Source: Longimicrobiales bacterium (lineage in GTDB: Bacteria; Gemmatimonadota; Gemmatimonadetes; Longimicrobiales; Gaopeijiaceae). From it: a stretch of 64,000 nucleotides of DNA. The translations under genes and the position numbers were made by a program. Under the pieces are notes generated by a model. That model was not told the origin of the DNA. It did no database searches and worked only from the letters and a program-made list of their open reading frames with translations. The stretch spans positions 3,392,001 through 3,456,000 of the forward strand of contig OZ250165.1 of assembly GCA_965238005.1 (NCBI GenBank). The letters are read 5' to 3'. Of this stretch, positions 49,535 through 64,000 are shown piece by piece (the stretch's first letter is position 1; every line of letters starts with the position of its first letter).

Positions 49535-49686
49535 TCCCCCCCTGGCTCGAGACCTTCGCGGCCGATCTTGTGGACCGTATCGAGCTGGGCCTCGAAGGGG
49601 ACTGAAGCCGGTCCACCGGCCGCTCCCCACTCTCTGCGGTCCCAGAGGCCCATGGCTCAGCCCCTGATCGGGTGGGACCGTTCCCT

Positions 49687-50667
49687 ATGCGCAAGAAACC
49701 CGATCTCGAGCGATCGCTCGCCAACACTAGCCGCCTCCTGAGACAGAGGGGTTACCGGAATAGGACGGTAGACGTGTACGCGCGATGGCTCCGGCGATTC
49801 GCAGAGGCCCATCCCGGTACCGCGGTAGAGGATCTCACCAGAAGGCACGTGGAGGAGTTCTTGAGCGTTCTCACGGACCAGCGGAGGTTAGCGCCGAAGA
49901 GTCGCAATCAAGCCGCGTCCGCGCTGGCGTTTTTCTTTAGAGAGGTTCTGGGCCGCGATGATCTTGCAGGCATGCCTCGGGCCCGAGAGCCGCAACGAAT
50001 ACCGACAGTGTTATCCCACGGGCAGGCCCGACTCGTGCTCAGCCATCTGTCCGGTAAATATCGACTGCTGGGTTCGCTGATGTATGGCACAGGCGCCCGC
50101 CTGACGGAGTGTCATCAACTGCGGGTGAAGGACATCGACTTCGACCTGGTGCAGATCGCCATACGGGACGGGAAGGGTGCCAAGGACCGTTGGGTCATGC
50201 TTCCCGAGCGGCTCGGCCCGGCGCTACGCCGCCAGGTATCTTGGGTAACGGAACTGCACGAGGAGGACAGACGGCAAGGAGGCGGCTGGGCGCAACTGCC
50301 GGGTGCACTGGATCGCAAGGATCCGCGTGGGGGATACGACCTCGGTTGGCAGTTCCTGTTCCCCGCGAGCCGATGGTCACGTGATCCCGCCACTAACAGG
50401 AAAGGTCGGTACCACCTCCATCCGACAGCGATGCAGAAGCGGATGAAGGAGGCCGCGCGAGCATCCGGCATTGCCAAGCCCGTCACGTGTCACATCCTCC
50501 GCAAATCTTTTGCCACCCAGATGTTTCGGGCCGGATACGACGCGCGTTCCGTGCGGAAGCTCATGGGGCACAGGGACATCCGCACGACAATGATCTACGT
50601 GCAAGCCATCACCGACGCCGGACTGGGCATGCGCAGCCCACTTGATCGACCGGAGGACCGGGACTAG
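49687..50667 (+). CDS. intI: Integron integrase
   Basis: NQAASALAFF, YGTGARLTE, RVKDIDF, GKGAKDR, IntI-specific insert (LPGALDRKDP...WQFLFP), HILR, MGH, TTMIY. Confidence 0.93.
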   Translation: MRKKPDLERSLANTSRLLRQRGYRNRTVDVYARWLRRFAEAHPGTAVEDLTRRHVEEFLSVLTDQRRLAPKSRNQAASALAFFFREVLGRDDLAGMPRAREPQRIPTVLSHGQARLVLSHLSGKYRLLGSLMYGTGARLTECHQLRVKDIDFDLVQIAIRDGKGAKDRWVMLPERLGPALRRQVSWVTELHEEDRRQGGGWAQLPGALDRKDPRGGYDLGWQFLFPASRWSRDPATNRKGRYHLHPTAMQKRMKEAARASGIAKPVTCHILRKSFATQMFRAGYDARSVRKLMGHRDIRTTMIYVQAITDAGLGMRSPLDRPEDRD

Positions 50668-50840
50668 GCTGCCACCTACCAACAGCCCCTCCGACGCAAC
50701 TACCACGTCGCCAGCGCAGCCCAAACCCGAAGGCATGGAGGTCATAAACGGAGGCTGCACCGGGGCTGTCGGGCCCGCGCGGTCTCACCTACGTTGCCGT
50801 TCACGCAGTGGATCCGATTCAGAAGATCAAGAGGATTCGC

Positions 50841-50860
50841 GGTAGAGTTGAAAGTTAGGC
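50841..50860 (+). other. Candidate attI site (R box GTTAGGC at 50854-50860)
   Basis: GTTRRRY core about 190 bp 3' of intI and 20 bp before the first cassette ORF; no attC left arm found upstream. Confidence 0.6.
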
Positions 50861-50880
50861 GGCGCACCCAGGGAGACGAA

Positions 50881-51894
50881 ATGTCAGATCAGAGGCGGAA
50901 AGCGTTGATACCTGATAGAGACGACGGCGATGCCGTCATGGATCTCTCGAGGCGCGACATGGTTAGGATGACCGCCGGTGCCGGTGCCTATCTTGCGCTC
51001 AGTGGTTGCAGCAAGTCCGAAGTCACTTCGGGGCTCCTCACCAAGCCCATTCCGTCCTCGGGAGAGCAGATACCAGTGATTGGCATCGGAACCGCCCGGG
51101 ACCGCTTCATCCTCGACCAGCCGCCTGAAGACATTGCGATGCGGAAGCAGGTGTTTCAGGAGTTCACATCCATGGGTGGCCGCATGCTCGATGTGTTCCT
51201 AGGCGAGGACACCGAGACCTTCTGCGGCAACTTGATTCAGGAGCTGGGCAACCGCGAGCAGTTCTTCATCGCCACGAAGGAGAGCGTCAGGGCGGCAGTT
51301 AGTGCCGGTACCGATACTCGGCAAGCGGGCATCGACCGGATGAACGCATCGTTCAGCCGTTTCAACACCGACGTGATCGATCTGATGCAGATCCCGCACC
51401 TGACGGATTGGGAAAATCAGCTACCGATCCTACGTGAGTGGAAGCAGGAGGGGCGCTTCCGATACATCGGCGTGACCGTGTTTAGAAACGACCAGCACGA
51501 GGCCCTCGAATCCGTGATGCGACAGGAAGGCCTCGATTTCGTACAGCTCGACTACTCTTTGGAGGGCCGTCAGTCCGAGGAGCGCCTATTGCCACTGGCG
51601 GCCGACCGAGGAATGGCCGTGATGATCAACGTTCCCTTCCGCCGCGGCCTCGTCTTCCAGCGCCTGGGTGAACGGGAATTGCCCGGCTGGGCCGCGGAGC
51701 TGGAGTGTCAGACGATGGCACAGGTCACCCTTAAGTTCATCGTTTCGCACCCGTCTGTGACGTGCGCTATTCCCGGTACGTACAAGATGGAATACCTCAC
51801 GGACAACATGGGCGCGGCCATGGGGCCAATGCCGGATGCTGCCATGCGCCAGACCATGGCCGCATGGTATGACGCGTTGCCGGAGGTGGGCTAA
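50881..51894 (+). CDS. Cassette 1: aldo/keto reductase with Tat-like signal
   Basis: SRRDMV; IPVIGIGT, FIATK, IDLMQ, RYIGVT, VQLDYS, IPGT; bounded by GTTAGGC and CCCTAAC. Confidence 0.85.
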   Translation: MSDQRRKALIPDRDDGDAVMDLSRRDMVRMTAGAGAYLALSGCSKSEVTSGLLTKPIPSSGEQIPVIGIGTARDRFILDQPPEDIAMRKQVFQEFTSMGGRMLDVFLGEDTETFCGNLIQELGNREQFFIATKESVRAAVSAGTDTRQAGIDRMNASFSRFNTDVIDLMQIPHLTDWENQLPILREWKQEGRFRYIGVTVFRNDQHEALESVMRQEGLDFVQLDYSLEGRQSEERLLPLAADRGMAVMINVPFRRGLVFQRLGERELPGWAAELECQTMAQVTLKFIVSHPSVTCAIPGTYKMEYLTDNMGAAMGPMPDAAMRQTMAAWYDALPEVG

Positions 51895-51961
51895 GCGCGG
51901 ACGAGCACTCAAGAGACGGCGGCCGATCGAAGGACTGACATGCATAGCCCTAACAAGCGAT

Positions 51962-53639
51962 GAGGCCGTGTGAAAACTCACCATGATTGAACGGGGAGCG
52001 AGCACCTAGGGCGGTGAGCTTGACATTTTGCTGGGAGGGGCGGGAAAGTAGTCGGGTGGGGCGTTGCGGACCTGACAGGGCCGTCTGGAAGCGCCCCGAA
52101 GGGCGAAAAACGGCGCTGAGGACCCCCTCTACGCGAGGGCGTCCAGCAGCTGCGGGACCTCGACGATGTTGAGGACCCGCTTCAGGTTGTAGGCAAGCAC
52201 GGTCAGGCTGAACTCGCCGCGGACCTTCCGCATGCCTTTGAGCAGAAAGTACCCCTGGTCCATCCCGCGCTTCATCGTGCCAAACGGATGCTCCACTAGC
52301 GCTTTGCGCTGCGCGAAGCGCGCCTGCTCCCGCTGGAGCCGTTGCGCCATCTCCTCCATCAGGTGCTCGTCCGCCCACCGTGTGATCTTCCGCCCGTCTT
52401 TGTTGCGCGTACAGCGGGGCCTGAGTGGACACCGCTTACAGGCGGTGGTCCGATAGTTCTTGATGGTGCGCCCGAGCTCGACGGTGGTGGTGCGGTAGGT
52501 GAGCGTCTTCCCCGCAGGACAGCGATAGAGGTCCCGAGTCCGGTCGTAGACGAAGTCATCTTTGGTGAAGAGCCCGCGCTTGGCATTGGCCGAGGTGATC
52601 GGTCGGGGCACCAGCGGCGTGAGGCCCGCCTCCACACACGTCTTGATCTCGGCGCCGTGGTAGTAGCCCCGGTCGGCCACCACCACCGGCGTCACGTTCC
52701 TCAGTACCTCCTGGGCCGCCATGGCCATCGGACTGAGCTGATTCTGGTCGGCGGCGGCGTTGGTGACCGTCTCGGCCACAATCAACTTGTGCTTGGCGTC
52801 GACCGCGGTCTGGACGTTGTAGCAGATCTCGATGCGGCCCCCGCTCATCATCGGCCGACTGTCGGCATCGGTGAGTGAGCGCGCGCTCTCCCCACTCGCC
52901 GCCAGCTCTTGCTGGAGATCCTCGTAGCGCTCCCGGCGCTGCTTAAGCGCCGCAATCTTCTCGCGCAGGGCGTCGGCGCTCGGCCGCTCGGTGCCCGCCT
53001 CCGCCTCGTCCTGGCGCTCCAAGTCTCGCAGATAGCGCGCGATCGTGCGCTCGATGTCCCGTTGTAGCTTGGCCAAGCGGGCCGCGGTGTAGCTCCGATC
53101 CCGGGCATTGACCGCCCGGAACTTGCTCCCATCGATGGCGAGCAACTCGCCGCCAAAGAGGTCCAGCCGCTTGCACAAGAGAATGAACTCGCGGCATACG
53201 CCCTTCAGCGCCTGCGGGTGATCCCGGCGGAAGTCAGCGATGGTCTTGAAGTCGGGTCGCAGTCCTCGCACCAACCACATCAGCTCGATGTTGCGATGCG
53301 TCTCCTGCTCCAGCCGCCGGCTGGAGCGAATGCGGTGCAGGTAGCCGTATAGGTACAATCGCAGGAGATCACCGGGATCGTAGCCCGGGCGGCCCGTATC
53401 TGCAGGCACCGATCGCTGAAAACTGAGCGTGCCGAGATCGAGCTGCGCCACGAAGGCGTCGAGGAAGCGCACTGGGTTGTCAGCGGTGACGTAGTCGTCG
53501 AGGACCTCAGGGAGGAGCACCACTTGGGTGCGATCCCTGCCGGCGATATAGGCCATGGGCGAAGCTCCGAGCAAGGGGAGCACTGGCCAAAACACGGGAC
53601 GTATAATATATGGCACGTCAGGAGTTTTCACACAGGCTC
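51962..53639 (-). mobile_element. IS1182-family element with 4-bp target duplication
   Basis: 18-bp imperfect IRs GAGGCCGTGTGAAAACTC / GAGTTTTCACACAGGCTC; CGAT duplicated at 51958-51961 and 53640-53643. Confidence 0.9.
52129..53556 (-). CDS. IS1182-family transposase
   Basis: GRPGYDP, SSRRLE, PDFKTIADFR, IDGSKF, YNVQ, ADRGY, VEHPFGTMK, AYNLKR. Confidence 0.93.
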   Translation of the reverse strand: MAYIAGRDRTQVVLLPEVLDDYVTADNPVRFLDAFVAQLDLGTLSFQRSVPADTGRPGYDPGDLLRLYLYGYLHRIRSSRRLEQETHRNIELMWLVRGLRPDFKTIADFRRDHPQALKGVCREFILLCKRLDLFGGELLAIDGSKFRAVNARDRSYTAARLAKLQRDIERTIARYLRDLERQDEAEAGTERPSADALREKIAALKQRRERYEDLQQELAASGESARSLTDADSRPMMSGGRIEICYNVQTAVDAKHKLIVAETVTNAAADQNQLSPMAMAAQEVLRNVTPVVVADRGYYHGAEIKTCVEAGLTPLVPRPITSANAKRGLFTKDDFVYDRTRDLYRCPAGKTLTYRTTTVELGRTIKNYRTTACKRCPLRPRCTRNKDGRKITRWADEHLMEEMAQRLQREQARFAQRKALVEHPFGTMKRGMDQGYFLLKGMRKVRGEFSLTVLAYNLKRVLNIVEVPQLLDALA

Positions 53640-53899
53640 CGATCGCTACAGTCGCGGAAGGAGCGAGTGGCTCGCGCGTGCCGCGCTCGGTGACCAGATT
53701 GGCCGCGCAGTAGAATCGCGAGACGTTCTATGAAAGAGAGTGTCAAGAGCGGCTCCGCCCCGGCTGGATGCGAAGCCGTGTTGGGCTTGGCACTCAGCCC
53801 CTTGGTTGGATTAGCCGGATCGTCAGAGAGCGGTGTGCTGGATGAGTCAGTCTTCGTGTGGGCCATGATGATCCTCGCTTGGATGATCGATCCGTCCGG

Positions 53900-54140
53900 A
53901 CTTGATTGAGTGGACCTGGGTCGTACGACGCGAACCATGGTTCTATCTGAGACTCAGCGGCTTGATACTTCTTCGGGTTCTGCGGAAGGGCCTGGAGTTA
54001 GACTCGTGCCTCGGCATGACTGCGAGCCGGGCGTACGTCTCGCGTTGAGACTGCCTCCCGCACCGTCGTCCGGGGATTCGACGTTCCAAGGGATCGAGGG
54101 TCATACGCTGCACCCTACGCTCCGGGACGACGAACCCCCT
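53900..54140 (-). ncRNA. Candidate bridge/seek RNA of element C (boundaries approximate)
   Basis: ACGTCTCGCG (54035-54044) is the reverse complement of the left target flank; GTTAGA (53997-54002) equals the right target flank; a hairpin lies between them; GTTCTAT (53940-53946) equals the element end. Confidence 0.7.
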
Positions 54141-55134
54141 CTATATTTGGGGTCGACTCAGCTGGGTCGGATCAAAGACTTCTCCGGTTTTGAGTAGACG
54201 AAGGGTGAGCGCGGCGAGCTTACGCGCCAGCGTCACACGGGCGAGCTCCTCGCGCATCCCGCGCTCGATCATTCGGTGATAGAAATCTTGTAGAGGGCCC
54301 CGACGTCCGATGGCTACGTTGGCGGCGCCCTTAAAGACATTCTTGAGTACGCGATTGTGGTTGGGGTTCAACCCTCGCGTGAGTGGAGGGCGACGACGAC
54401 GACGAGGGCGCCCATCAAACAACTCGTAGTCGGCGCCTTGGTCTTCTTGCGCTGAGTCCGAAGCACATCGAGCTGAGCGTACAGGGTCTCGGCACGTAGC
54501 CGAGCACCGTGCTCGGGTAGCTGTGCGACCCAGGCGGCGCGCCCCTTCGGCTGGTAGACACCGCCGCCCGTGGTTCGGATGGCCCGCGCACGGAAGAGTG
54601 CCTTGAGCCGCAGCATCACGCGCGTGCCGTCCTCGACGAGGTTGCGATAGGCTCGAGTTAGACACCGCCGCCCGTGGTTCGGATGGCCCGCGCACGGAAG
54701 AGTGCCTTGAGCCGCAGCATCACGCGCGTGCCGTCCTCGACGAGGTTGCGATAGGCTCGAGTCAGCTCCTTGAGATCGCCTCGGCCGTGTGCGCCGTGGT
54801 ATACCGCTCGCAGGCTGCCGCACCGCAACTGCTCCGACAGTTCGTCGGCATCGACCTGGTCCCCCTTGTTGCCCGATCGCTTCTCGCCTCTGCGGTCGCA
54901 CACGATCACCCGGTCTACACGAGGACTCAGTAGGTCGTAGAGCCACTGCGCCTGTGTTCCCTCCTCGAACACCACGTGCACCGACCCAGCCATCGCGCTG
55001 AAGAACTCCCTTATCGATTCGTCGCTCGTCTCCACCACGCTGCGCGCGATCACACGCCCCCCTTCGCTCCGAACCGTCGCCACCGTCATTGCCTGGTGCA
55101 CGTCGAGCCCCACATACTTGGTGTTCCGCTTCAT
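54141..55134 (-). pseudogene. IS110-family transposase pseudogene
   Basis: YVGLDVH, VFEEG, KGDQVDA, C-terminal NRVLKNVF...ARVTLARKLA; broken by a 104-bp duplication and an internal deletion. Confidence 0.85.
54555..54762. repeat. Exact 104-bp tandem duplication
   Basis: 54555-54658 equals 54659-54762 (TAGACACCGCC...GGCTCGAGT). Confidence 0.92.
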
Positions 55135-55329
55135 GAGAGCCGCCCTCTGCTGTGGTCCATGGTTGTTTCGCAACTCCACGGTACCCACAGGGGGCGTGCT
55201 TTCAAGTTGTGTTAGAGCGCACCCCGGAACGCTTTCGGTCCTACGTGCGCGAGAAACCTTGCGATAACGAATGAGATACTTTATTTACCACAGTACTCTG
55301 CATCAGTTTGTTCTCCGCTCCGCGGACTC

Positions 55330-56566
55330 ATGAAAGCGACGACCGACCGCATCCTCCAGCTGCTCGATGATCCCGAAGAGCTCGAGGCACTCTATCGGCA
55401 GGCCCCGGAGGCGTTTCGCGAGTCGCTCGGCGAGGCCTTCCGTACGGATCCCGATTCGGTGGCGCTGCGCATATGGCGGGCGCGACTTGAGTACCGCGAG
55501 CCGGGTCAGGGGGCGATTTTGCCTCGTAGGCTGGGTTATGCGATCGCGATCGCCCTGGCCGTCGGTGCGCTCGTCCGACTCCCGGCTCTCTGGCTCGGGG
55601 AGGTACTACCCTCGTCTTGCACCGTCGTGGGTCATCATGGCGCTTGCCGCGTATTTCTGGATCAGGCGTCCCGACCGTAGCCTGCTGATCGCGGGCTTGG
55701 GCCTGTCCCTCGCAGTCGTCGTCTATGTCAGCCGGCTCCCAGACTACACCGACTCAGTAGTAATGGCCCTGGTCCACCTCCCGTTCGTCTTCTGGACCTT
55801 CCTCGGACTGGTGTTCATGGGAGACTCGTGGCGAGAGGCGGATGCGCGGGTCCGCTTTGTTCGCTACAACGGTGAGCTGGTGGTTCTGGCCAGCCTAGTG
55901 GCGCTCGGCGGGATGGTGTTCAGCGGGGTGACGGTCGCCTTGTTTGAGTTGGTTTACGAGAACATCGGGGATTGGTACTTCAGCAACGTCGGAGTCTTCG
56001 GTGCCGCCGCCGTACCCGTCGCCGGGACGTATTTGTACGATGCCGTGTTCAATGAACGGACCGGGATCGCGGCAGTGCTCGCACGCGTCTTCGCCCCCCT
56101 CTTCTTAGTAATGGCGGTCACCTACTTGATTGTCGCGTTCATCGGAGGCGAGAACCCGTTCGTCGACCGTTCCTTCCTGATCACGTTCAACGGCTTGCTA
56201 CTCGTAGTACTTGGCATCTCGGTCTTTTCGATCGTGGAACGCGCCGAGGGGTCGCAGGTGGGGTTGATAGACTACATCAACATTACGCTCGTATTGGTCA
56301 CTCTCGTGATGGACGCGATCGCGCTATCCGCGATTCTTTTCAGGATGGCGTCCTTCGGATTCACGCCGAACCGAGTGACCGTGCTTGGAGCCAATCTGGT
56401 CATCATGGTGCACCTCGCATGGATATGCTGGACCTACGTCGCGCTAGTGCGCCGGAGGGCGGGGTTTGCGGCGATGCGGCGGGTCGTGGGAAGCTACCTC
56501 CCGATCTACGGGGCTTGGGCCGCCGTCGTTGCCTTCCTCCTGCCGCTAGTCTTTGCGTTCGCTTGA
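55330..56566 (+). pseudogene. Cassette 2: polytopic membrane protein (DUF4153-like) with a frameshift near 55600
   Basis: ORF 55330 supplies the N-terminus (to LPALWLGE) and ORF 55367 supplies YYPRLAP...GFTPNRVTVLGAN; bounded by GTTAGAG (55211) and AGCTAAC (56616-56622). Confidence 0.7.
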
Positions 56567-56622
56567 GACAGAGCCAGATCTCCCTGCGTCTACCAATAGC
56601 TCTTGCCAAGGCGCGAGCTAAC

Positions 56623-56880
56623 ACCATTAAGAAGGACCGGGTCAAGAGTACGCACTGATCCTGAGGCGGCGGGCGATGCCCCCAGATATGGGCGCTCTTG
56701 AACGCACACTCCCGCGGACAACCCGGTTCGGGGGAAGTCTGACTACTTGTGGCCTAACGACTAACGTCACCGCTCTCTTCCTCAGCTTCCCGCCCGACTC
56801 CTCTTATCGCCTCGGAGTCCATGGAGACTGGGCTCGGGCAAGACCCCTGTGCTTCAACTGATTAAAGAGGAACTCGAGGT
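56623..56880 (-). mobile_element. Possible orphan IS110/IS1111-type 3' end 'D' directly after an attC R'' stub (right boundary unknown)
   Basis: TAAC followed by 19 nt then TCAAGAG, the same geometry as element A; non-coding; no attC body follows. Confidence 0.45.
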
Positions 56881-57048
56881 GCCAGCCGTCATGCGCGATC
56901 GGCGACCTGGGTAGGGGTCGGGCGTCAGGACCGAGCCCCAGATTCACGGAACATCCTAGCGCTCAACCTCCGCACCACCCTACAATTCCCCCCCGGGTCC
57001 TCCTTCCTCGGACTCGGTTCGGTTTCCCCGGGCCTGAGAGGCAATCCC

Positions 57049-58518
57049 ATGCGCGCACCGAACCTGATGGCGATCCGGTCGACCTTGTTCGTCGCTCTCA
57101 CGACAGCTGCCCTCACCACCCTCGCGCTCGCGGCCGCACCGACCCACGCGGGCGCCCAGGCGACCGCCTCGGATTCCGAGGTCCTGGCTCAGATCGACCT
57201 CTTCTCCGCGTGGCTCGAAGGTCAGATCGAGATCCGTGGACTACCGGGCGCCGTCGGCGGCGTCGTTTCGGGTGATGAGCTGGTGTGGGCTGAGGGCTTC
57301 GGACGTGCGGACGTCGATGCGGATCGGCCCATGGAGACCGATATGCGCTTCCGCATGGCTTCGCACAGCAAGCTCTTCACCGCAACTGCTATCATGCAGC
57401 TCCGGGAACAAGGCAAGGTTCGGCTTGATGATCCCGTCACCGATTACCTGCCATGGTTCACCTTCCAGAGCGCCGCTCCTGACGATCCTCCGGTCACCAT
57501 CGAGCACCTGCTAACGCACAGCTCCGGGCTCCCGCGCGAGGCCGGTTCGCACTGGACCGACTTCGACTTCCCAACCCCCGAGGAGGTCCTCGAGTTGATG
57601 CCCGATCGTCAGGCCCCCTTCTCACCCGAAGTCCGCTGGAAGTACTCGAACCTCGCCTACACCATCGCCGGCATGATCGTGGAGGCGATCAGCGGGATGA
57701 GCTGGGCGGACTACCTTAAGCAGAACATATTTGACCCGCTCGGCATGAGCTCGTCTAGCGTCGATCTGCCGGACGCGAAGATGGCTACTGGGTACGGCCG
57801 TCGGATGCCCGACGGCTCTCGGCAGGTCTTTCCGTTCGTCGACGCGCGCGGGATGGCCGCCGCGACGGGACTCACGTCGACGGTCGAAGACATGGCCCGC
57901 TTCGTGTCTGCCCAGTTTCGGACGGGGGCCCGCGGCGGTGACCGGCTTCTGAGGACGGCATCGCTTCGGGAGATGCATCGTGTGCGCATGCTCGAAAACA
58001 CGTGGACGAGCGGCCAAGGCATCGGATTCAGCGTGCGACGGATCGACGGGAAGCTCTATGTCGGCCACGGCGGCGGATACCCGGGCTACACGACGAACAC
58101 GACGATCCAGCTCGACTCGAAGGTTGGTGTAATCGTTCTAACGAACACGAATGACTCGAACCCTTCCCAGATCGCGGAGCAGCTCATGGGCACGGTCGGC
58201 GAAGCTGTCGCCTCCGCGACCACAGTCGAGCCGGAGGTCGTCGCGTGGGATCCCGCGTGGGAGCGCTTCGCCGGTGTGTACCGGAGCCGCGGCGGCGAGA
58301 CGCGAGTCCTCGTCATGAACGAACGGCTGGTGACGATGAATCCGTGGGGCACGAGTATCGGGGACCCGACCCAACTCGAACTGATCGGCGACGGGACGTT
58401 TCGCATGGTGGCGCCCACAGGTGGTGGCCCGGTCGGCGAGATCGTCCGGTTCGTCGAGGAGAACGGCGAGGTCGTACGGATGATTACAGGAGATTCGTAC
58501 TCCGTACGCGTGCGCTAG
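57049..58518 (+). CDS. Secreted serine hydrolase (beta-lactamase / AmpC-like fold)
   Basis: Signal peptide; SHSK (SxxK), LLTHSSGL, YSN, HGGG. Confidence 0.9.
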   Translation: MRAPNLMAIRSTLFVALTTAALTTLALAAAPTHAGAQATASDSEVLAQIDLFSAWLEGQIEIRGLPGAVGGVVSGDELVWAEGFGRADVDADRPMETDMRFRMASHSKLFTATAIMQLREQGKVRLDDPVTDYLPWFTFQSAAPDDPPVTIEHLLTHSSGLPREAGSHWTDFDFPTPEEVLELMPDRQAPFSPEVRWKYSNLAYTIAGMIVEAISGMSWADYLKQNIFDPLGMSSSSVDLPDAKMATGYGRRMPDGSRQVFPFVDARGMAAATGLTSTVEDMARFVSAQFRTGARGGDRLLRTASLREMHRVRMLENTWTSGQGIGFSVRRIDGKLYVGHGGGYPGYTTNTTIQLDSKVGVIVLTNTNDSNPSQIAEQLMGTVGEAVASATTVEPEVVAWDPAWERFAGVYRSRGGETRVLVMNERLVTMNPWGTSIGDPTQLELIGDGTFRMVAPTGGGPVGEIVRFVEENGEVVRMITGDSYSVRVR

Positions 58519-58537
58519 AAGCGGCTCGACCCGCCGT

Positions 58538-58697
58538 TTCGTCTGGCGATCTGGCGATGCGCATGACGTTGAGATCGTCGACTACCACTAGGAGGCATCT
58601 AATGACCACATCGACGATGGCGCCGGTACACCCAGGCGAGGTCTTGCTTGAGGAGTTCCTCGAACCAATGGAGATTAGCCAGTGCCGACTGACGAAG
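58538..58697 (+). pseudogene. higA: Truncated higBA toxin-antitoxin remnant
   Basis: FVWRSGDAHDVEIVDYH* (HigB C-terminus, stop 58591), then GGAGG and MTTSTMAPVHPGEVLLEEFLEPMEISQ (HigA N-terminus from 58602). Confidence 0.8.
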
Positions 58698-58876
58698 GAC
58701 GGGTCCCTCCACGAGCTGACCCGTGTTGCTCACGATGGCGATCACTGAATACGTTGCATGGGCGTCGATTCCTGCGACAAACATGGCTGGCCTCCTTGGG
58801 TTCGGGTGCCGCAGGCCTTGAGTAAGCACAGTGCAACACCCAGCCCGAGTGAGGTCCGCCCTTCGCCTTATAAGAT
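58692..58876 (-). mobile_element. 5' remnant of IS110-type element 'B1' abutting the attC L' box
   Basis: MFVAGIDAHATYSVIAIVS from ATG 58784; end TTATAAGAT joined to the attC right arm. Confidence 0.75.
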
Positions 58877-58897
58877 CAGAATCGCGAGACGTTATGC
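58877..58897 (+). other. Right arm of an attC site (partial L', spacer, R' GTTATGC)
   Basis: AGAATCGCGAGACGTT (58878-58893) is identical to the attC1 right arm (53712-53727). Confidence 0.8.
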
Positions 58898-58923
58898 GGC
58901 GCCGCCTGGCTGAGAGAATAGAC

Positions 58924-59286
58924 TCACGCAGGCTCGAACAGTTCGATCGGATTGCCATCCAGGTCTTCTGCGAGGCTCTGCCTGCCACCAGGGCCGCTAA
59001 TAATCTCGCTCCGGAACTGGACTCCGGCCCGCGTAAGCCTCTCGACCTCGGCATCCAAATCATCGACGTCGATGAGGATGCGGTTCCAACCGCCCGGCTC
59101 TGTCACACGTCCGTCGGGCATCGAGCGGCGTCCCGAGGACTTGGGGCCGCTGAGCAAGAGGGTGAGGTCTCCTCGAGTGACGATACAGATCGCGGGGGCT
59201 TGTAGCTCGATTACGAAACCGAAGTACTCGGTGTAAAAGGCCGCCGCCGCCCCGGGGTCGTTGACCATGTACCTCACTCTCGCCAT
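58924..59286 (-). CDS. VOC/glyoxalase-family protein carried antisense within a cassette
   Basis: VRYMVND...FYTEYFGF...GGWNRI...DLDGNPIELFEP; cassette bounded by GTTATGC (58891) and ACATAAC (59458-59464). Confidence 0.9.
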   Translation of the reverse strand: MARVRYMVNDPGAAAAFYTEYFGFVIELQAPAICIVTRGDLTLLLSGPKSSGRRSMPDGRVTEPGGWNRILIDVDDLDAEVERLTRAGVQFRSEIISGPGGRQSLAEDLDGNPIELFEPA

Positions 59287-59499
59287 TCCTGCCTCCAACC
59301 ACCCATATGACATTTTGGCACGACCCCCGGCTTTTGGATGAACCATCAACTCAGATGGGATCTCTATCACGCGCACCTAGAAGCCAAGGTCGATCTGCAG
59401 AGGATCAAGCCGCTCCGCAGAAAAGACCTGGCTAGAACTGCGTAGCGCGGGCGCGCCACATAACACTTATCAGGCCCCCGGAATCAAGAGCGCGCATGT

Positions 59500-59734
59500 C
59501 CCCCAGCGTGCCGCGGAGCGGCGCGTAGAAGAGTGAGCATCGGTCGCCGAGTCCTCTGACTTGGTTTCCGTAGGCAGGTGCGAGCGTAGGGAGCCTCTGC
59601 ACCAAACACTTATCGAGGTTCAACCGCCGGGTGCCCTTCGAGACGAGCTCGAAGGCGGCGGAGCAGGAGCCTCGTGTCCGCTCCTGCGACCTAGAAATTC
59701 ATCTGTACCCTCGTGCCGTCCGACTCCATTCAAG
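59500..59734 (-). ncRNA. Candidate bridge/seek RNA of element A (boundaries approximate)
   Basis: Structured, conserved in a second copy at ~63650-63888; internal AACACTTATC (59605-59614) equals the element end; TAGGCA is complementary to the attC R'' flank TGCCTA. Confidence 0.6.
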
Positions 59735-59924
59735 GTGAGCGGGCTCAGGCCGTGTTGTGAGGCCAGGCCAGTTAGCTCCGGGCTCGGGTGAGGGGCAGAG
59801 TCCATGGTGGACCGATGGCGATGTGTGTGAGGAGCGGGAGGAGGCGTCCAATCAAGCGAAGCGGCTGCCAACCATCCGCTGTCGGCTCGAGTTATATGTC
59901 AGGCTCGCCGACCTCCCCTCCCCG

Positions 59925-60971
59925 TCAGGTGCGGGTATAGAAGCGTTCGGTGTCGAATGCCTGCCGGTTCTTGAGCATGAAGTAGGTCGCCCGGCCGATG
60001 CGAGCGGCGAGGATGCTGAGCGCTTTGCCCTTGCCGTGGCGGCGCGTGAGCTTCTTCAGATGAGCCTGGCCGCGGGCGTTGTCCCTGAGGAAGAGCACGG
60101 CGGCCTCGCTGAAGGCCCATTTGAGATGAGCGTTCCCGATCTTGGCTCCTCCGCTGCCGACCCGCTTGCCTGCACTGCGGTGCTCGGGCTTAGCGAGTCG
60201 ACAGTAGGAGCTGAAGCGCTGCACTGTGCTGAAGCGAGCGATGTCGTGGATCTCATAGAGCAGGGTGAGCGCCAGGATGCGGCCGACGCCGGGGATGGTT
60301 CGGAGCCGCTCCAGCGTGTCGAAGTCGTGGACACGGGCTTCCTGTTCGACCGTGTGCTCGAGCGCTCGGATCACCGGGTCGTAGCGATCGGCCAGGGCGA
60401 GGTCCGCCTCGATCGTCCTTTGGGTCATGGGATCATCGAATGCCTCGGCCAGGCCCTGGCGGTTCTTCTTGTACAGGAGCTGACCGGAGGGTCGAGGCAG
60501 GTTGTACTGATGGAAGGTGTTACGGATGTGGGCGAGCAGTTCGCCTCGCTTGCGCACGAAGTAGAGTCGGCGCCGGAGCACGTCGCGTGTGGCGCGCATC
60601 CCAGGTGGATAGACGTAGGCGACGGGAAAGGCGCCGCCTCGCAGCAGGACCGCCGTCTTGTGGGAGTCGATCTTGTCGTTCTTGGCCTTGGCCCCATGAA
60701 TCGCCTTCATGTAGAGCGCATGGCCGAGCACGAAGTGGATCTGCTCGCGAGCACACAGATCGGCCAGCCAGTACCAGCAGAAGATGCACTCGCTGCCCAC
60801 GACGAGGTCTGAACGGTAGGGCTCGAGGGCGCGAAGGAGTGCCTCGCGCTCACAGCGTAGCCTCTTGTGCAGGCGTATCTTGCCCTGGCAGTCCAGGACG
60901 CAGAGGTAGAGTGTGCGAGCATGAAGGTCGATGCCACAGTAGTATCGATGCTGGCCTGTGTAGAAGCGCAT
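59925..60971 (-). CDS. IS110-family DEDD transposase (recombinase), intact
   Basis: GIDLH, GSEC, KNDKIDS, IPGVG, HRSAG (catalytic Ser), GNAHLKWAF. Confidence 0.93.
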   Translation of the reverse strand: MRFYTGQHRYYCGIDLHARTLYLCVLDCQGKIRLHKRLRCEREALLRALEPYRSDLVVGSECIFCWYWLADLCAREQIHFVLGHALYMKAIHGAKAKNDKIDSHKTAVLLRGGAFPVAYVYPPGMRATRDVLRRRLYFVRKRGELLAHIRNTFHQYNLPRPSGQLLYKKNRQGLAEAFDDPMTQRTIEADLALADRYDPVIRALEHTVEQEARVHDFDTLERLRTIPGVGRILALTLLYEIHDIARFSTVQRFSSYCRLAKPEHRSAGKRVGSGGAKIGNAHLKWAFSEAAVLFLRDNARGQAHLKKLTRRHGKGKALSILAARIGRATYFMLKNRQAFDTERFYTRT

Positions 60972-61452
60972 GGTTCCCCTCCTGGGTTGGATGAATCGAG
61001 TTTGGCGCTCTGATTCTTCCGCCCTCTCTTCGAGAGGTCCAGGAGGGGGCCTGCATGAGCAGGCTTGCTACTGGCGCGTGCGACATCAGGCTCGCGCGCT
61101 TCGCTTGCAGTCGCCATCTTGGTCGCCGGCCGAACCCCGAATAGGTGCTCGAGTCCCTGAGGACTGCACGAGCGAGCTTGCGTGCAGTGGCGATGCGAGC
61201 GATGCGCCAATCGAGCCGATCCTTGAGCCGGTCGTAGTACTCGCTGAGCCAGCTTTCGGGAGATCGGCCGTGATGGATGACGACGGTCTGGACGAAGGCG
61301 TTTCGGAGCTAGCGATTGGCACCGGCCGGGATGGGCCCGTAGCGGACCGTCATCCCGGAACGAGCAGCACTGCGTCGATCGCATCGTTCTTGTAGTTGGC
61401 TTCGGCGATCGCGGCTTCTGAACAAGCGCTCCGTCTTTGCTCACCACCGCAA

Positions 61453-62909
61453 GAAGCTGTCCCAACCGTAGTTGAAGGTTCCTGATAGGGGAGAAAGAAA
61501 AGTGGTGGCTCCGGGGGTCCCGGGCCGATAGGCTCGGGTAGGCAAAAACCCCAACACGGAGCCACCACGATGAAGAGAACGTACGAGGTAAGGGATCGGG
61601 CGGACAAGCGCGCGATCAGGGAGTTCCTGAAGCGGGAGGGGCAGTTTCTGCTTCCGATGCTTGAGCTCGTGGAGCAGACGGAGGTCGCGATCGACGAAGT
61701 CATCCAGGTGATGGGACGAGCGACGATCGAAGCGGTGCTGGAGATGAGCGCCGAGGGTGTGGCAGGCGTGAAGCAGGCAGGTCGGTCACGAGCGGAAGAC
61801 GACACGGTGTGGTATGGCCGGCAGGGTGGTGTGGTTTACCTGTCGGACCGGAAGGTGCGTGTGGAGCGGCCACGGCTCAGGCGCCGGGGCGCCGGGGAGG
61901 GTGGCGAGGTCGAGGTGCCGGCGTACGCAGCGATGCGGAGACCGGGCGCCGTGGCGGATCGGATGCTCGAGGTCCTGATGGCGGGGGTGAGCACGCGGAA
62001 GTACGGCCGTGTGATCGGTGAGATGGCCGACACGGTCGGGGTGAGCAAGTCGGCGGTGAGCCGTGAGACGGTCGAGGCCTCGGAGCGCGTGCTGAAGGAG
62101 CTGATGGAGCGCCGGCTGGATGCGTGGGACCTCCTGGTGATCTACCTGGACGGGATCCAGATGGGCTCGCACCACGTGCTTGCTGCGGTAGGCGTGGACT
62201 CAGACGGAAAGAAGCACGTGCTGGGCGTGAGGGAAGGAGCGAGTGAGAACGCCGAGGTGACCAGCGCGCTCCTAGAGGATCTGGTCGAGCGCGGCCTGGA
62301 CCCGGGCAGGCGGCGGCTGTTCGTGATCGATGGCTCGAAAGCGCTCAGGAAGGCGATCGAGAAGGTGTTCGGCCAACGTCACCCCATCCAGCGCTGCCGC
62401 AACCACAAGCTCCGCAACGTGCTGGGTCATCTGCCGAAGGATCAGCATCCTCAGGTGAAGGCGGCGTTCCGGGCGGCGATGAAGCTGGACGCGAAGCAGG
62501 GCGAGCAGAAGCTCGAGCAGCTCGCCCGATGGCTCGAGCGCGACCACCCCTCGGCCTCGGCCAGCCTACGCGAAGGCCTCAGCGAGATGTTCACGATCAA
62601 CCGGCTCGGCCTCCCGCCGCGGCTGAGGAAGTGCCTGGGCTCGACCAACCTGATCGACAGCACCCACTCGGGCGTAAGACAGAAGACCCGCAGGGTGACC
62701 AACTGGAAGAACGGAGCGATGGCCTTGCGCTGGGCTGCGGCCTCGTTCGTGGAGACCGAGAAGACCTACCGGAGGATCATCGGCTACGACCAGCTCTGGA
62801 TGCTCAGGGCCCACCTCGACGACCATGAACCGGTGGCCGAAATGAGAAAGGCAGGCTAACAAGGAGACTCTCCGGAGCCACCACCTTCAACTGTCAGCGG
62901 GACACCATC
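61453..62909 (+). mobile_element. IS256-family element with 8-bp target duplication
   Basis: IRs GAAGCTGTCCC...GTTGAAGGT / ACCTTCAAC...GGGACACCATC; CACCGCAA at 61445-61452 and 62910-62917. Confidence 0.92.
61570..62859 (+). CDS. IS256-family (mutator-type) transposase
   Basis: GVSTRK, SKSAVSR, IYLDG, VIDGSKAL, QRCRNH, STNLID. Confidence 0.95.
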   Translation: MKRTYEVRDRADKRAIREFLKREGQFLLPMLELVEQTEVAIDEVIQVMGRATIEAVLEMSAEGVAGVKQAGRSRAEDDTVWYGRQGGVVYLSDRKVRVERPRLRRRGAGEGGEVEVPAYAAMRRPGAVADRMLEVLMAGVSTRKYGRVIGEMADTVGVSKSAVSRETVEASERVLKELMERRLDAWDLLVIYLDGIQMGSHHVLAAVGVDSDGKKHVLGVREGASENAEVTSALLEDLVERGLDPGRRRLFVIDGSKALRKAIEKVFGQRHPIQRCRNHKLRNVLGHLPKDQHPQVKAAFRAAMKLDAKQGEQKLEQLARWLERDHPSASASLREGLSEMFTINRLGLPPRLRKCLGSTNLIDSTHSGVRQKTRRVTNWKNGAMALRWAAASFVETEKTYRRIIGYDQLWMLRAHLDDHEPVAEMRKAG

Positions 62910-63115
62910 CACCGCAACGACCAGATACGTTGTGTGCGCATCGATTCCTGCGACATACATGATGGCCTCCTGGTGGTTGGCAGCCGCAGGTTCTTGGAGA
63001 AGTACCAGCGTAGTGCGCCGGCCATTGGGAGGCCATCCGCTTTATAAGGTCAGCAGAAGCGCAAAGTCGTTAGGCATCCGAGAACCGAGAGGGGCAGTGA
63101 ACGCATTCCATCTTC

Positions 63116-63601
63116 TTGGTCTGTTTAGCGGTCGTGGTAGCTGCGATCGGTTGGAAAGTCGCCGGTCTGCTCGGAGTCGTGCTCGGCGTCCCGGCCGGAA
63201 TCCTCGTGGGAGTCTATGGTCTGATAGGGACGTTCCTGGCCTTGGCGTGGCTCGAGACTCGCCGCGACCAGCTAGCTCTGCGCAGGTCATTCGGCCCGTA
63301 TTGGCGGGCCGAATACCGCGCAGATTGGGAGGAACTCAAGGCGTCGCTTCGCCCCGGCGCCGTTGTGAATGGAGTTGTGGTCAGAGTGCGATATCACGGC
63401 GCCTTCCTTAATCTTGGGAAAGGATTTCCGGGGCTTATCCAGGCCTACCAAATCGTGCATGACGGCTCGGAGCTGCCGTCCGTTGGTGACAACGTTCGTG
63501 CATGGGTTAAGGAGTATGATGAGGACTGTCGGACGGTAGTGCTCACGATGAACGAAGGGTCGCTCTCAGGACTCGGTGACCTCCGACCCCCGGATGCCTA
63601 A
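63116..63601 (+). CDS. Cassette: membrane-anchored S1 (OB-fold) domain protein
   Basis: Two TM segments then WEELK...GAVVNGVV...HGAFLNLG...GLI...VGDNVRAWV...VVLTM; stop TAA lies inside R''; cassette ends TTAGGCATCCG / CGGATGCCTAA are complementary. True start may be GTG 63097 with a 1-nt shift. Confidence 0.75.
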   Translation: MVCLAVVVAAIGWKVAGLLGVVLGVPAGILVGVYGLIGTFLALAWLETRRDQLALRRSFGPYWRAEYRADWEELKASLRPGAVVNGVVVRVRYHGAFLNLGKGFPGLIQAYQIVHDGSELPSVGDNVRAWVKEYDEDCRTVVLTMNEGSLSGLGDLRPPDA

Positions 63602-64000
63602 ACACTTATCAGGCCCCCGGAGTCAAGAGCACGCACGTCCCCCCCCTCCCCCCGACGCGTCGCGGAGCGGCGCGCTAGGCGAAATAAGCATCGGTCGCCG
63701 AGTCCTCTGACCTGGTTTCAGTAGGCAGGTGCGAGCGTAGGGAGCCTCTGCACCAAACACTTATCGAGGTTCAACCGCCGGGTGCCCTACGAGGCGAGCT
63801 CGAAGGCGGCGGAGCGAGAAGTCTTCGTTTCGATTCCTCGCGACCTAGAAATTCATCTGTACCCTCGTGCCGTCCGACTCCATTCAAGACGTAGGTTAGG
63901 GAAGGCGCCGCCTCGCAGCAGCACGGCCGTCTTGTGCGAGTCGATCTCGTCGTTCTTGGCCTTGGCCCCGTGGATCGCCTTCTGCCCTGCGAGTCCAGGA
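63601..64000 (-). mobile_element. Second, internally deleted copy of element A at the next attC R''; runs off the right edge
   Basis: 63601-63888 is homologous to 59462-59734, then jumps to sequence homologous to transposase positions ~60624-60708 and ~60881-60898. Confidence 0.85.

Follow-up and report, generated by a model that had tools for sequence, protein, structure and literature searches.

The window analysed here, a stretch of 64,000 nucleotides, comes from the genome of an uncultured soil/sediment-type bacterium that carries a chromosomal integron. The integron integrase IntI is encoded at 49672-50667 on the plus strand (TIGR02249 with 326.8 bits at a cut-off of 265, together with Phage_integrase and SAM-like domains), and the cassettes follow downstream on the same strand. 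The array extends about 8 kb beyond the end of the window at base 64000. A sequence-only reading of this DNA had claimed that no attC of the array is left unoccupied. We found all recognisable attC sites within the window to be interrupted; for the array as a whole the claim is false, because shortly beyond the window's end there are at least three free attC sites, at the window-equivalent positions 65435-65529, 66227-66324 and 66505-66606. The N-terminal remnant of a HigA antitoxin lies at 58602-58700 (plus strand; TIGR02607, E 2.2e-7, residues 6-33 corresponding to profile positions 2-29 of 81) and is cut off by a fragment of an insertion sequence described below as lineage B. No attC was found by the attC-family profile or by folding between the ORF end at 58518 and the HigA remnant; a candidate short attC at 58511-58581 was rejected, as it shows neither end-to-end pairing nor a profile match.

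By eye, the attC family of this array follows the pattern CTAAC-AAGCGnTTGCTGC...GCGCAGCAGAAnCGCGAGAC-GTTAGGC. Since half-site HMMs and a regular-expression scan for whole sites proved too weak or unspecific, they were replaced by a full-length profile built from seven uninterrupted sites (the MAFFT alignment of these seven places the R' box of one site wrongly). At E≤1e-3 the profile gave 28 matches, of which 11 fall within this array or shortly after it. The pieces of attC left between the insertions are matched too, among them one at 67636-67729 (model positions 5-97); each such match ends where an element sits, and the profile coordinates continue across the insertions. MFE folding with DNA parameters returned an end-to-end hairpin for four of seven free or reconstituted sites and none for the other three.

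The attC of cassette 1 (51944-55217) holds two elements. Its 5' part (51944-51961, plus strand) comprises R'' CCCTAAC at 51945-51951 and the start of L'', and is followed by a DDE insertion sequence of the IS1182 family at 51962-53642 on the minus strand (transposase 52129-53631; NF033551 with 424.2 bits against a cut-off of 270; inverted repeats; 4-bp duplication CGAT). This element is present in six copies in the genome with at least 99.5% identity, and in four of the six it lies at an offset of 7 nt from CTAAC. The middle of the site and the L' arm up to the first GTT occupy 53643-53727 on the plus strand (profile match 53640-53727, model positions 12-96, E 9e-10). Here an IS1111-type element, lineage C, spans 53728-55210 on the minus strand with GTT on both sides (53725-53727 and 55211-55213), and the R' box GTTAGAG at 55211-55217 (plus strand) closes the site at the cassette boundary. 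With both elements removed computationally, attC 1 folds into an end-to-end hairpin with nine terminal pairs, a number reached by 3 of 200 shuffles. The transposase of this lineage C copy is split into the frames 54141-54695 and 54658-55188 by a 104-bp tandem duplication (54555-54762), and because of this frameshift only PF01548 is detected; a copy elsewhere in the genome and a copy in another genome (G224) carry both PF01548 and PF02371. A Logan contig from one sequencing run (X4) spans lineage C without the 104-bp duplication, with a side of 121 nt, and is not counted as evidence.

Further downstream, R'' (GAGCTAAC) of the next attC is followed from 56621 by a right-end remnant of the type found in a second IS1111-type group, lineage A (56615-56700, minus strand; right-end pattern CTCTTGAC...AATGGTG|TTAGC); its right end aligns with right ends of the A family, while the rest aligns poorly. 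The fragment that truncates the HigA gene is the 5' part of a third type, lineage B, at 58697-58876 on the minus strand. It consists of the left end with the sub-terminal repeat CTTATAAGGCGAAG and the first ~29 codons, is 87-92% identical to four other loci of the genome, and adjoins the 3' remainder of an attC (58877-58897, plus strand: core CA, L' arm, R' GTTATGC) that resembles the flanks at other B copies. The next site, 59457-63073, carries both A and B. It contains the sole intact IS110-type copy of the window, a full lineage A element at 59466-61059 on the minus strand (transposase 59925-60971 with PF01548 and PF02371; NF033542 with 184.6 bits against a cut-off of 140), then the middle of the attC at 61062-61125 on the plus strand (profile match 61064-61126, model positions 14-77, E about 3e-7, precisely 2.7e-7), and from ~61126 to 63050 a decayed B-type copy on the minus strand. 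The latter was recognised by tblastn and by blastn (74-76% to B left ends) and retains its left end at 63050, N-terminal codons at 62910-62960 and a C-terminal piece at 61204-61368, without a right end. Nested in it is a DDE element of the IS256 family (61453-62909, plus strand; transposase 61570-62859; NF033543 with 224.4 bits), of which the genome holds about ten near-identical copies. The 3' part of the attC follows at 63051-63073 on the plus strand, with core CA, L' arm and R' GTTAGGC (63067-63073). A second, internally deleted lineage A copy, recognised by its repeats, by blastn and by sequence, occupies 63605-64000 on the minus strand and continues to ~64165 past the window; it sits after GCCTAAA-CA, and the remainder of its attC at 64163-64273 matches profile positions 5-100. 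One more lineage A fragment lies near 67358, beyond the window. Logan contigs of four runs contain joints with short sides (22-37 nt), for which paralogous attC sites or foreign organisms may be the source; a joint of this kind connects 61125 to 63051 with two letters between and would correspond to an empty B site. These joints are not taken as evidence.

Most IS110-type copies are decayed fragments, and both B copies of the window are stumps. The three lineages share the hallmarks of IS110/IS1111 elements. Transposases with the DEDD signature, an N-terminal PF01548 and a C-terminal PF02371 domain are found in A, in an intact B copy elsewhere in the genome and in C. As to the INDEPENDENCE of the lineages, BLASTP gave 28% protein identity for A/B, 27% for B/C and nothing significant for A/C, all below 30%. 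Calculated from the coordinates, a long non-coding region lies downstream of the transposase gene and a short one upstream in all three (A ~460 and ~90 nt; B ~300 nt, counted before a tandem duplication, and ~85 nt; C ~410 and ~25 nt). Sub-terminal inverted repeats read CAGGCCCCC / GGGGGCCTG in A and CTTATAAGGCGAAG / CTTCGCCTTATAG in B; in C a weak match of 6-7 nt (TGAAAG) was seen by eye. Element ends depend on the core chosen and may be off by 2-3 nt.

Each lineage has its own position in attC. Lineage A sits after ...CTAA/ATAA with CA on both sides, at the R''/L'' junction; lineage B lies directly 5' of ...CAGAAnCGC...GTTAG, in the L' arm; and the insertion point of lineage C coincides with the R' G|TT crossover. 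The minus strand carries all three, so that they run antisense to the cassette ORFs. The arrangement anticipated from the letters alone is therefore borne out: lineage A (two copies and the A-like right-end remnant from 56621) at R'', both B stumps just 5' of the L' box, C at the R' GTT, and everything antisense to the array. Likewise, the proposal that independent lineages have settled at three sub-sites of one attC family agrees with protein identities of at most 28% and with the distinct fixed positions, and that of co-occupancy with the pairs A + B in 59457-63073 and IS1182 + C in 51944-55217. The targets of A, B and C do not overlap, and one attC can therefore carry more than one element. 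The assumption that all occupants are IS110/IS1111 elements applies to A, B and C and fails for the IS1182-family (NF033551) and IS256 (NF033543) elements.

We tabulated the flanks of further copies, and the sub-sites were mostly kept in this genome and in relatives; among the exceptions are the intact B copy and a second B-type left end at 390607. For lineage C, GTTAG(A/G) stands on the left-end side of all four copies in this genome, and the R' box as such is found beside each of them. Relatives of C were detected at E≤1e-20 in 28 of the 401 genomes sampled from the phylum; CTAAC precedes all 14 left ends with a flank (12 genomes; 15 rows, one of them cut by a contig end), and the right ends read CATAG|AAC in 9 of 9 cases. 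For the A family, 539 relatives were confirmed by a search of genome contigs, other phyla included, and at 21 of the 24 loci with both ends found the right flank starts with TTA, corresponding to TAACA on the attC top strand. For lineage B, in this genome an R'-type box follows within 25 nt of five of seven left ends and two right ends abut the attC centre, and in other genomes three of four left ends read are 14-18 nt from a (C/A)TAAC box; the site of the intact B copy resembles the L' arm only, without an R' box, and the left end at 390607 has no clear attC.

The 3' non-coding region of each lineage contains two guide-like segments that fit the sub-site of that lineage, come together at the shared core and co-vary with the flanks across relatives, most clearly in C and in the A family. 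In lineage A the guide region is at 59845-59910 (minus strand), with a segment X complementary to the R'' flank and a segment Y whose letters are those of the L'' flank and the core. Copy A1 fits its own left flank poorly (4/9); across the family the identity of guides to their own flanks exceeded that of permuted pairings in 5000 of 5000 trials (18 rows, of which three have no left flank, one has a cut right flank and seven are near-identical elements). In the intact B copy, a segment of 10 nt is complementary to TGCTGCGCGC, and GATTCTG follows about 25 nt further on; a diverged B type in another genome (G356) carries other segments that fit its own flanks, with an 8-nt identity and complementarities of 7/8 and 8/9, the second figure by eye. 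In lineage C, guide 1 is the complement of the right flank, and guide 2 has the letters of the left flank (xCTAAC). For seven distinct C guides the longest runs complementary to the own flank are 10, 10, 2, 9, 6, 7 and 9 nt, compared to mostly 2-5 nt for other flanks; the run of 2 nt belongs to a row (L010) that is mis-anchored or has its non-coding region deleted. The sum of these runs was reached by 2 of 5040 permutations. Because the relatives are kin, both permutation figures overstate independence. The guide difference between the C elements of this genome and of G224 exactly parallels the difference between their attC flanks.

A seekRNA-like region of lineage C can be delimited at 53970-54075 on the minus strand, where, in the consensus fold, an outer stem (13 pairs, two with double changes) and an inner hairpin enclose a single internal loop that holds both guides. 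Folded as a single sequence, the C region does no better than shuffles (z -0.7), and no Rfam family was matched by the whole window at gathering thresholds or by 53600-64000 at E≤1. A second motif, identical to the element's own right end together with the core, is present in A, B and C, as would be expected by analogy for the donor-binding part. The idea of RNA guidance thus finds sequence-level support: paired, target-matching segments that overlap at the core, as in IS110/IS1111 elements, fit their own sub-sites and change together with the flanks.

The same insertion pattern might arise if proteins chose the site mainly by recognising the folded attC hairpin, as the integrase and group IIC-attC introns do, with the RNA matches being incidental. 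This would agree with the orientation, since A, B, C, the published IS1111-attC elements and group IIC-attC introns are all antisense to the array, and with the DDE element, which keeps its 7-nt offset from CTAAC in most copies without a guide RNA. However, the guides track flank changes, the intact B copy resides at a site that fits its guides and lacks the rest of attC, and published seekRNA experiments (PMC11187229) demonstrate RNA-programmed targeting in the IS1111 family; we therefore consider hairpin recognition unlikely as the main determinant. Shared flanks could also mean that attC-plus-IS blocks underwent segmental duplication or recombination, rather than that elements inserted site-specifically again and again. 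Arrays are recombination-prone, several copies are shortened by deletions, and in some the identity continues beyond the element, the C copy at 1.62 Mb matching from 53704, 24 nt outside. Against this, the cassettes beyond attC differ, flanks of independent copies are largely unrelated outside ~25 nt, C keeps its sub-site in 12 genomes and the A family its own in other phyla, with attC sequences that differ, and guides change with the flanks, which makes duplication very improbable. Equally far-fetched is the notion that the attC-like flanks are the elements' own ends and no attC is targeted: the CTAAC beside the C left end and the invariant AAC or TG on both sides can be read as terminal sequence, but this attC family also has free sites in which no element sits, the profile runs on across the insertions, and directly outside the invariant core the bases are variable and change along with the guides.

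We therefore regard it as quite probable, judging from the DNA itself, that the array was colonised by three IS1111-type lineages, each directed into its own attC sub-site by a seekRNA/bridge-RNA-like guide. In this scheme, three deeply diverged elements with DEDD transposase, long 3' non-coding region and sub-terminal inverted repeats would each encode, downstream of the transposase, a transcript that directs them to a short attC sequence. An internal loop of this RNA would hold both guides, each including the 2-3 nt core found on both sides of the element after insertion; read in element orientation (attC bottom strand), the 5' guide would be complementary to the right flank and the 3' guide identical to the left flank. 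The predicted targets on the attC bottom strand are ...GCGCT-TG-TTAGGC at the R''/L'' junction for A, ...GATTC-TG-CTGCGC inside the L' arm for B and ...YCT-AAC-GTCTCGCG for C, whose core would be the GTT/AAC triplet of the integrase crossover. From positions, flanks, guide matches and covariation we infer that such RNAs are produced, bind the transposase and direct insertion. DDE elements accumulate as well, namely IS256 and the IS1182-family element, the latter 7 nt from the R box. The interrupted sites would presumably be dead for the integrase, and occupation may, as the sequence-only reading proposed, freeze the array.

Tetu and Holmes reportedly described in 2008 the IS1111-attC elements as a monophyletic transposase clade with ISPst6 and ISPa21. 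The members ISPa21, ISPst6 and ISKpn4, with ISPa25 at the same site, have IS1111-type DEDD transposases, a downstream guide RNA and a single orientation (PMC11187229). According to PMC3001079, elements of this group run antisense to the cassettes and insert at a single position, close to the 5' end of attC. A and its family are alike in being IS1111-type and antisense and in using the R''/L'' junction near the 5' end, a likeness of position and orientation. B (L' arm) and C (R' G|TT) share the antisense orientation, but lie in the 3' half of attC and so do not use the same insertion position. The sub-site of lineage A matches the one described, and only those of B and C, for which we found no description in the literature searched, go beyond it. 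A locus inspected among Klebsiella plasmid matches in the search for ISKpn4 adjoins iutA and is not in an integron. The guides resemble the seekRNAs of ISEc11, ISKpn4 and ISPa11 and the bridge RNA of IS621 in that one structured RNA holds two guides, one per strand, which overlap at the insertion point; the order of the top-strand match 5' of the bottom-strand match and the overlap, as published (PMC11187229), agree with what is seen here. In IS1111-type elements the seekRNA is encoded in the right end. The scaffolds predicted here differ, being lineage-specific and without a match to any Rfam family. Group IIC-attC introns likewise target attC antisense near its 5' end (PMC3001079); they are retroelements with another mechanism, and none was seen in the array. 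IS4321/IS5075 and ISPa11, also of IS1111 type, have transposon inverted repeats or REP sequences as their targets (PMC11187229); they too home to a conserved, repeated and often palindromic sequence, but the target class is another one and there is no described case of several lineages dividing one target.

We consider it an evenly balanced question whether attC is a landing pad with several niches, used by a guild of mobile elements specific to integrons. On this broader reading at least three independent RNA-guided IS1111-type lineages would be tuned to different stretches of 10-20 nt, with guides tracking the attC family of the host (this genome, G224 and G356), and the IS1182-family element would be similarly precise without a guide; together they would inactivate the integrase-proximal cassettes, while their stumps reshape the array. 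The core of C would be GTT, a near-universal triplet of attC at which the integrase crossover takes place, and every attC would therefore be open to C in principle.

Integron arrays rank among the main stores of exchangeable genes, and whatever disables or reshapes attC sites decides which cassettes stay mobile. Tools that find attC sites or call cassettes will miss sites split by such elements. On a target of ~100 nt, the locus would offer three orthogonal guide/target pairs suited to a laboratory transposition assay. In the literature searched, a single IS group is described as homing to attC, and at a single position; the present locus extends this habit to two new spots and indicates how the guides are matched to them. 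The locus adds two further deep lineages with positions of their own, one of them exactly at the integrase crossover, and what appears to be a natural reprogramming of guides that follows the attC sequence of the host.

The window, part of a 4.84-Mb genome in one contig, carries an integron integrase gene on its plus strand at 49672-50667 (326.8 bits to TIGR02249, whose cut-off is 265). As seen in 49672-51900, the gene lies on the cassette strand (the attC top strand) and points toward the cassettes, a layout that differs from class 1 integrons, where the integrase is divergent from the cassettes. The cassette ORFs downstream are mostly on the same strand and encode an aldo/keto reductase (50794-51894), a membrane protein (55367-56566), a beta-lactamase-fold serine hydrolase (57049-58518) and an S1-domain protein (63116-63601), all on the plus strand; the one minus-strand exception is a glyoxalase-fold protein (58924-59376). 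In a family scan the serine hydrolase scored far under all curated beta-lactamase cut-offs.

Read by eye, the cassette junctions form a single family of imperfect palindromes, approximately CTAAC-AAGCGnTTGCTGCnGTCGCGG ... GCGCAGCAGAAnCGCGAGAC-GTTAGGC on the cassette strand. An nhmmer profile was made from an alignment of seven uninterrupted sites: three just beyond the window end (65435-65529, 66227-66324 and 66505-66606, continuing the window numbering), two solitary sites elsewhere in the same genome and two from G224, another genome of the phylum sample with related elements. Genome-wide the profile matched 39 places at E<=1, of which 28 also reach E<=1e-3. Four matches outside the training set are attC pieces between insertions, with the model match ending exactly at the element: 53640-53727 (model positions 12-96), 61064-61126 (14-77) and, beyond the window end, 64163-64273 (5-100) and 67636-67729 (5-97). 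Bottom-strand folding with DNA parameters was applied to seven sites, free or restored by computation, and four of them formed an end-to-end hairpin; nine terminal positions are paired in the restored first attC, a number that 3 of 200 shuffles reach. A repeat of about 187 bp, present in well over 100 genome copies at 82-98% identity, directly adjoins an attC 5' half at 71510-71696 (same numbering); it resembles a MITE or an element of REP type.

Occupants were called by blastn against the whole genome, family scans and junction reading. An IS1182-family DDE element (51962-53642, 424 bits, CGAT duplication) lies in the first attC, in its L'' arm. The next occupant is a lineage C element of the DEDD/IS110 family (53728-55210), which has GTT on both sides and a gene broken by a 104-bp tandem duplication (54555-54762). 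An A-like right-end remnant begins at 56621, directly after GAGCTAA, and no recognisable sequence was found for the remainder of its attC. A lineage B left-end stump (58697-58876) interrupts a HigA antitoxin gene (TIGR02607, E 2e-7), leaving about the first 33 codons; next come the final 21 nt of an attC. The HigA N-terminus lies at 58602-58700 with no HigB partner visible, apparently in the cassette with the beta-lactamase-fold ORF or else in a cassette whose attC was lost. The intact lineage A copy (59466-61059) shares its attC with a decayed B-type copy (about 61126-63050), which carries a nested IS256 (61453-62909) and is followed by the final 23 nt of that attC. An internally deleted A copy runs from 63605 beyond the window end, where an A fragment follows at about 67358-67638. 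Most of the IS110-type copies are wrecks, and all lie on the minus strand, bearing out the sequence-only reading that they are antisense to the array. That reading had also taken every attC to be occupied, and by IS110/IS1111 elements only. All recognisable attC sites inside the window are indeed interrupted, but the array has at least three free sites and two of the occupants are DDE transposons (IS1182-family and IS256); on both points, full occupancy and a guild of IS110 elements alone, the reading was wrong. The freezing of the array that it also proposed is a possible consequence of such co-occupancy. In four of the six genome copies the IS1182-family element is inserted exactly 7 nt after a CTAAC box, and in a fifth copy GTTAG lies 7 nt outside the opposite end; from these flanks the element looks attC-directed too.

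The proposal that three lineages occupy three attC sub-sites was upheld by the flanks of genome copies and relatives, which keep the A, B and C positions. Insertion points on the cassette strand are CTAA-CA-AGCG for A, at the R''/L'' junction, GCGCAG-CA-GAATC for B, in the L' arm, and GAGAC-GTT-AGGC for C, at the R' GTT; the core, the 2-3 nt present on both sides, was chosen to restore the family consensus, with a possible error of 2-3 nt. A scan of genome contigs confirmed 539 relatives of lineage A across many phyla. We examined 82 loci (79 from the contig scan and three plasmid loci) and placed both ends in 24, of which 21 have a right flank starting TTA, reading TAACA with the core on the attC top strand. 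The host site of a family copy on a Vibrio campbellii plasmid is one we take to be a VCR-like attC. Members contain a segment X complementary to the R'' flank and a segment Y that is identical in sequence to the L'' flank together with the core. In all 5000 permutation trials with 18 elements (seven of them close kin, three without left flank and one with a cut right flank), both segments fitted their own flanks better than permuted flanks. The A left end at 61030-61061 has AGGAGG-N7-ATG on the cassette strand facing outward into attC, closely like a native cassette's ribosome-binding site and start at 65550, beyond the window.

For lineage B, an R'-type box comes next within 25 nt at 5 of the 7 left ends of this genome, and two right ends adjoin attC centres recognised by the profile to model position 81. 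In other genomes four left ends were read, and three have a (C/A)TAAC box at a distance of 14-18 nt; for one of the three, in G356, an integron integrase is about 15 kb away. The sole intact copy (genome 47357-48394) sits in an L' arm-like site without R' box and contains a 10-nt segment complementary to TGCTGCGCGC, then GATTCTG. At these scaffold positions a diverged B type in G356 carries other segments, which match its own flanks.

A search of 401 genomes sampled from the phylum gave lineage C protein matches in 28 (E<=1e-20). This genome has four copies, each with GTTAG(A/G) next to its left end. Of 15 left ends located by blastn, 14 retained a flank, and in all 14, from 12 genomes, CTAAC precedes the element in its own orientation; all nine right ends read ...CATAG|AAC, and bases outside CTAAC and after AAC are variable. 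Two stretches of a conserved scaffold, about 340-260 nt before the right end, match the flanks: the first, of 11 nt, is the complement of the right flank beginning with the core, and the second, about 30 nt later, is xxCTAAC, identical to the left flank. The first stretch varies among elements in step with their flanks: for seven distinct guides the longest complementary runs with their own flanks are 10, 10, 2, 9, 6, 7 and 9 nt (the 2 from an element with a shortened non-coding region), against mostly 2-5 nt with flanks of other elements, and the observed sum was reached in 2 of 5040 permutations. RNAalifold on six sequences placed the two guides in a single internal loop that lies between an inner hairpin and an outer stem of 13 pairs, two with double changes; folded as a single sequence, the region did no better than shuffles.

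Five intact C copies, 96% identical to those of this genome, are clustered within 30 kb in G224 (C1, 448887-479373), far from that genome's integrase match (2204724-2205398), which covers profile positions 90-314 only and may be truncated; a 297-aa ORF that weakly matches an integrase occurs in G224 in seven copies. Tandem duplications recur inside A, B and C elements: another C copy has repeats of about 180 bp, and the right end is duplicated in one A relative and in the intact B copy (about 250 bp, about 2060-2310 of that copy's locus).

By BLASTP the proteins of A and B are 28% identical and those of B and C 27%, with no significant match between A and C. The nearest public relatives of the elements are Longimicrobiales/Gemmatimonadota MAGs. 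Compared with plasmids, lineage A finds relatives of 50-60% identity on those of marine gammaproteobacteria and Manganitrophus; no plasmid match exceeds 34% identity for B and 31% for C. The published IS1111-attC elements are described as one clade inserting near the attC 5' end in antisense (PMC3001079), with ISKpn4, ISPst6 and ISPa25 at one common position (PMC3001079; PMC11187229); lineage A therefore behaves like this known group in position and orientation. In the freely readable literature searched we found neither an IS110-type insertion in the L' arm or at the R' crossover nor several lineages dividing one attC. The seekRNA is reported to be encoded downstream of the transposase and to contain a pair of short stretches, each the complement of a different target strand, which overlap at the insertion point, the top-strand match first (PMC11187229). 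In each of A, B and C a second motif is identical to the element's own right end plus core, as would be expected of a donor-binding part. The fixed sub-sites are real and far beyond chance. With guide segments that match their own flanks, vary with them in C and B and exceed permutation in A and C, the sequence comparisons lend good support to the view that A, B and C would be directed to their attC sub-sites by RNA.
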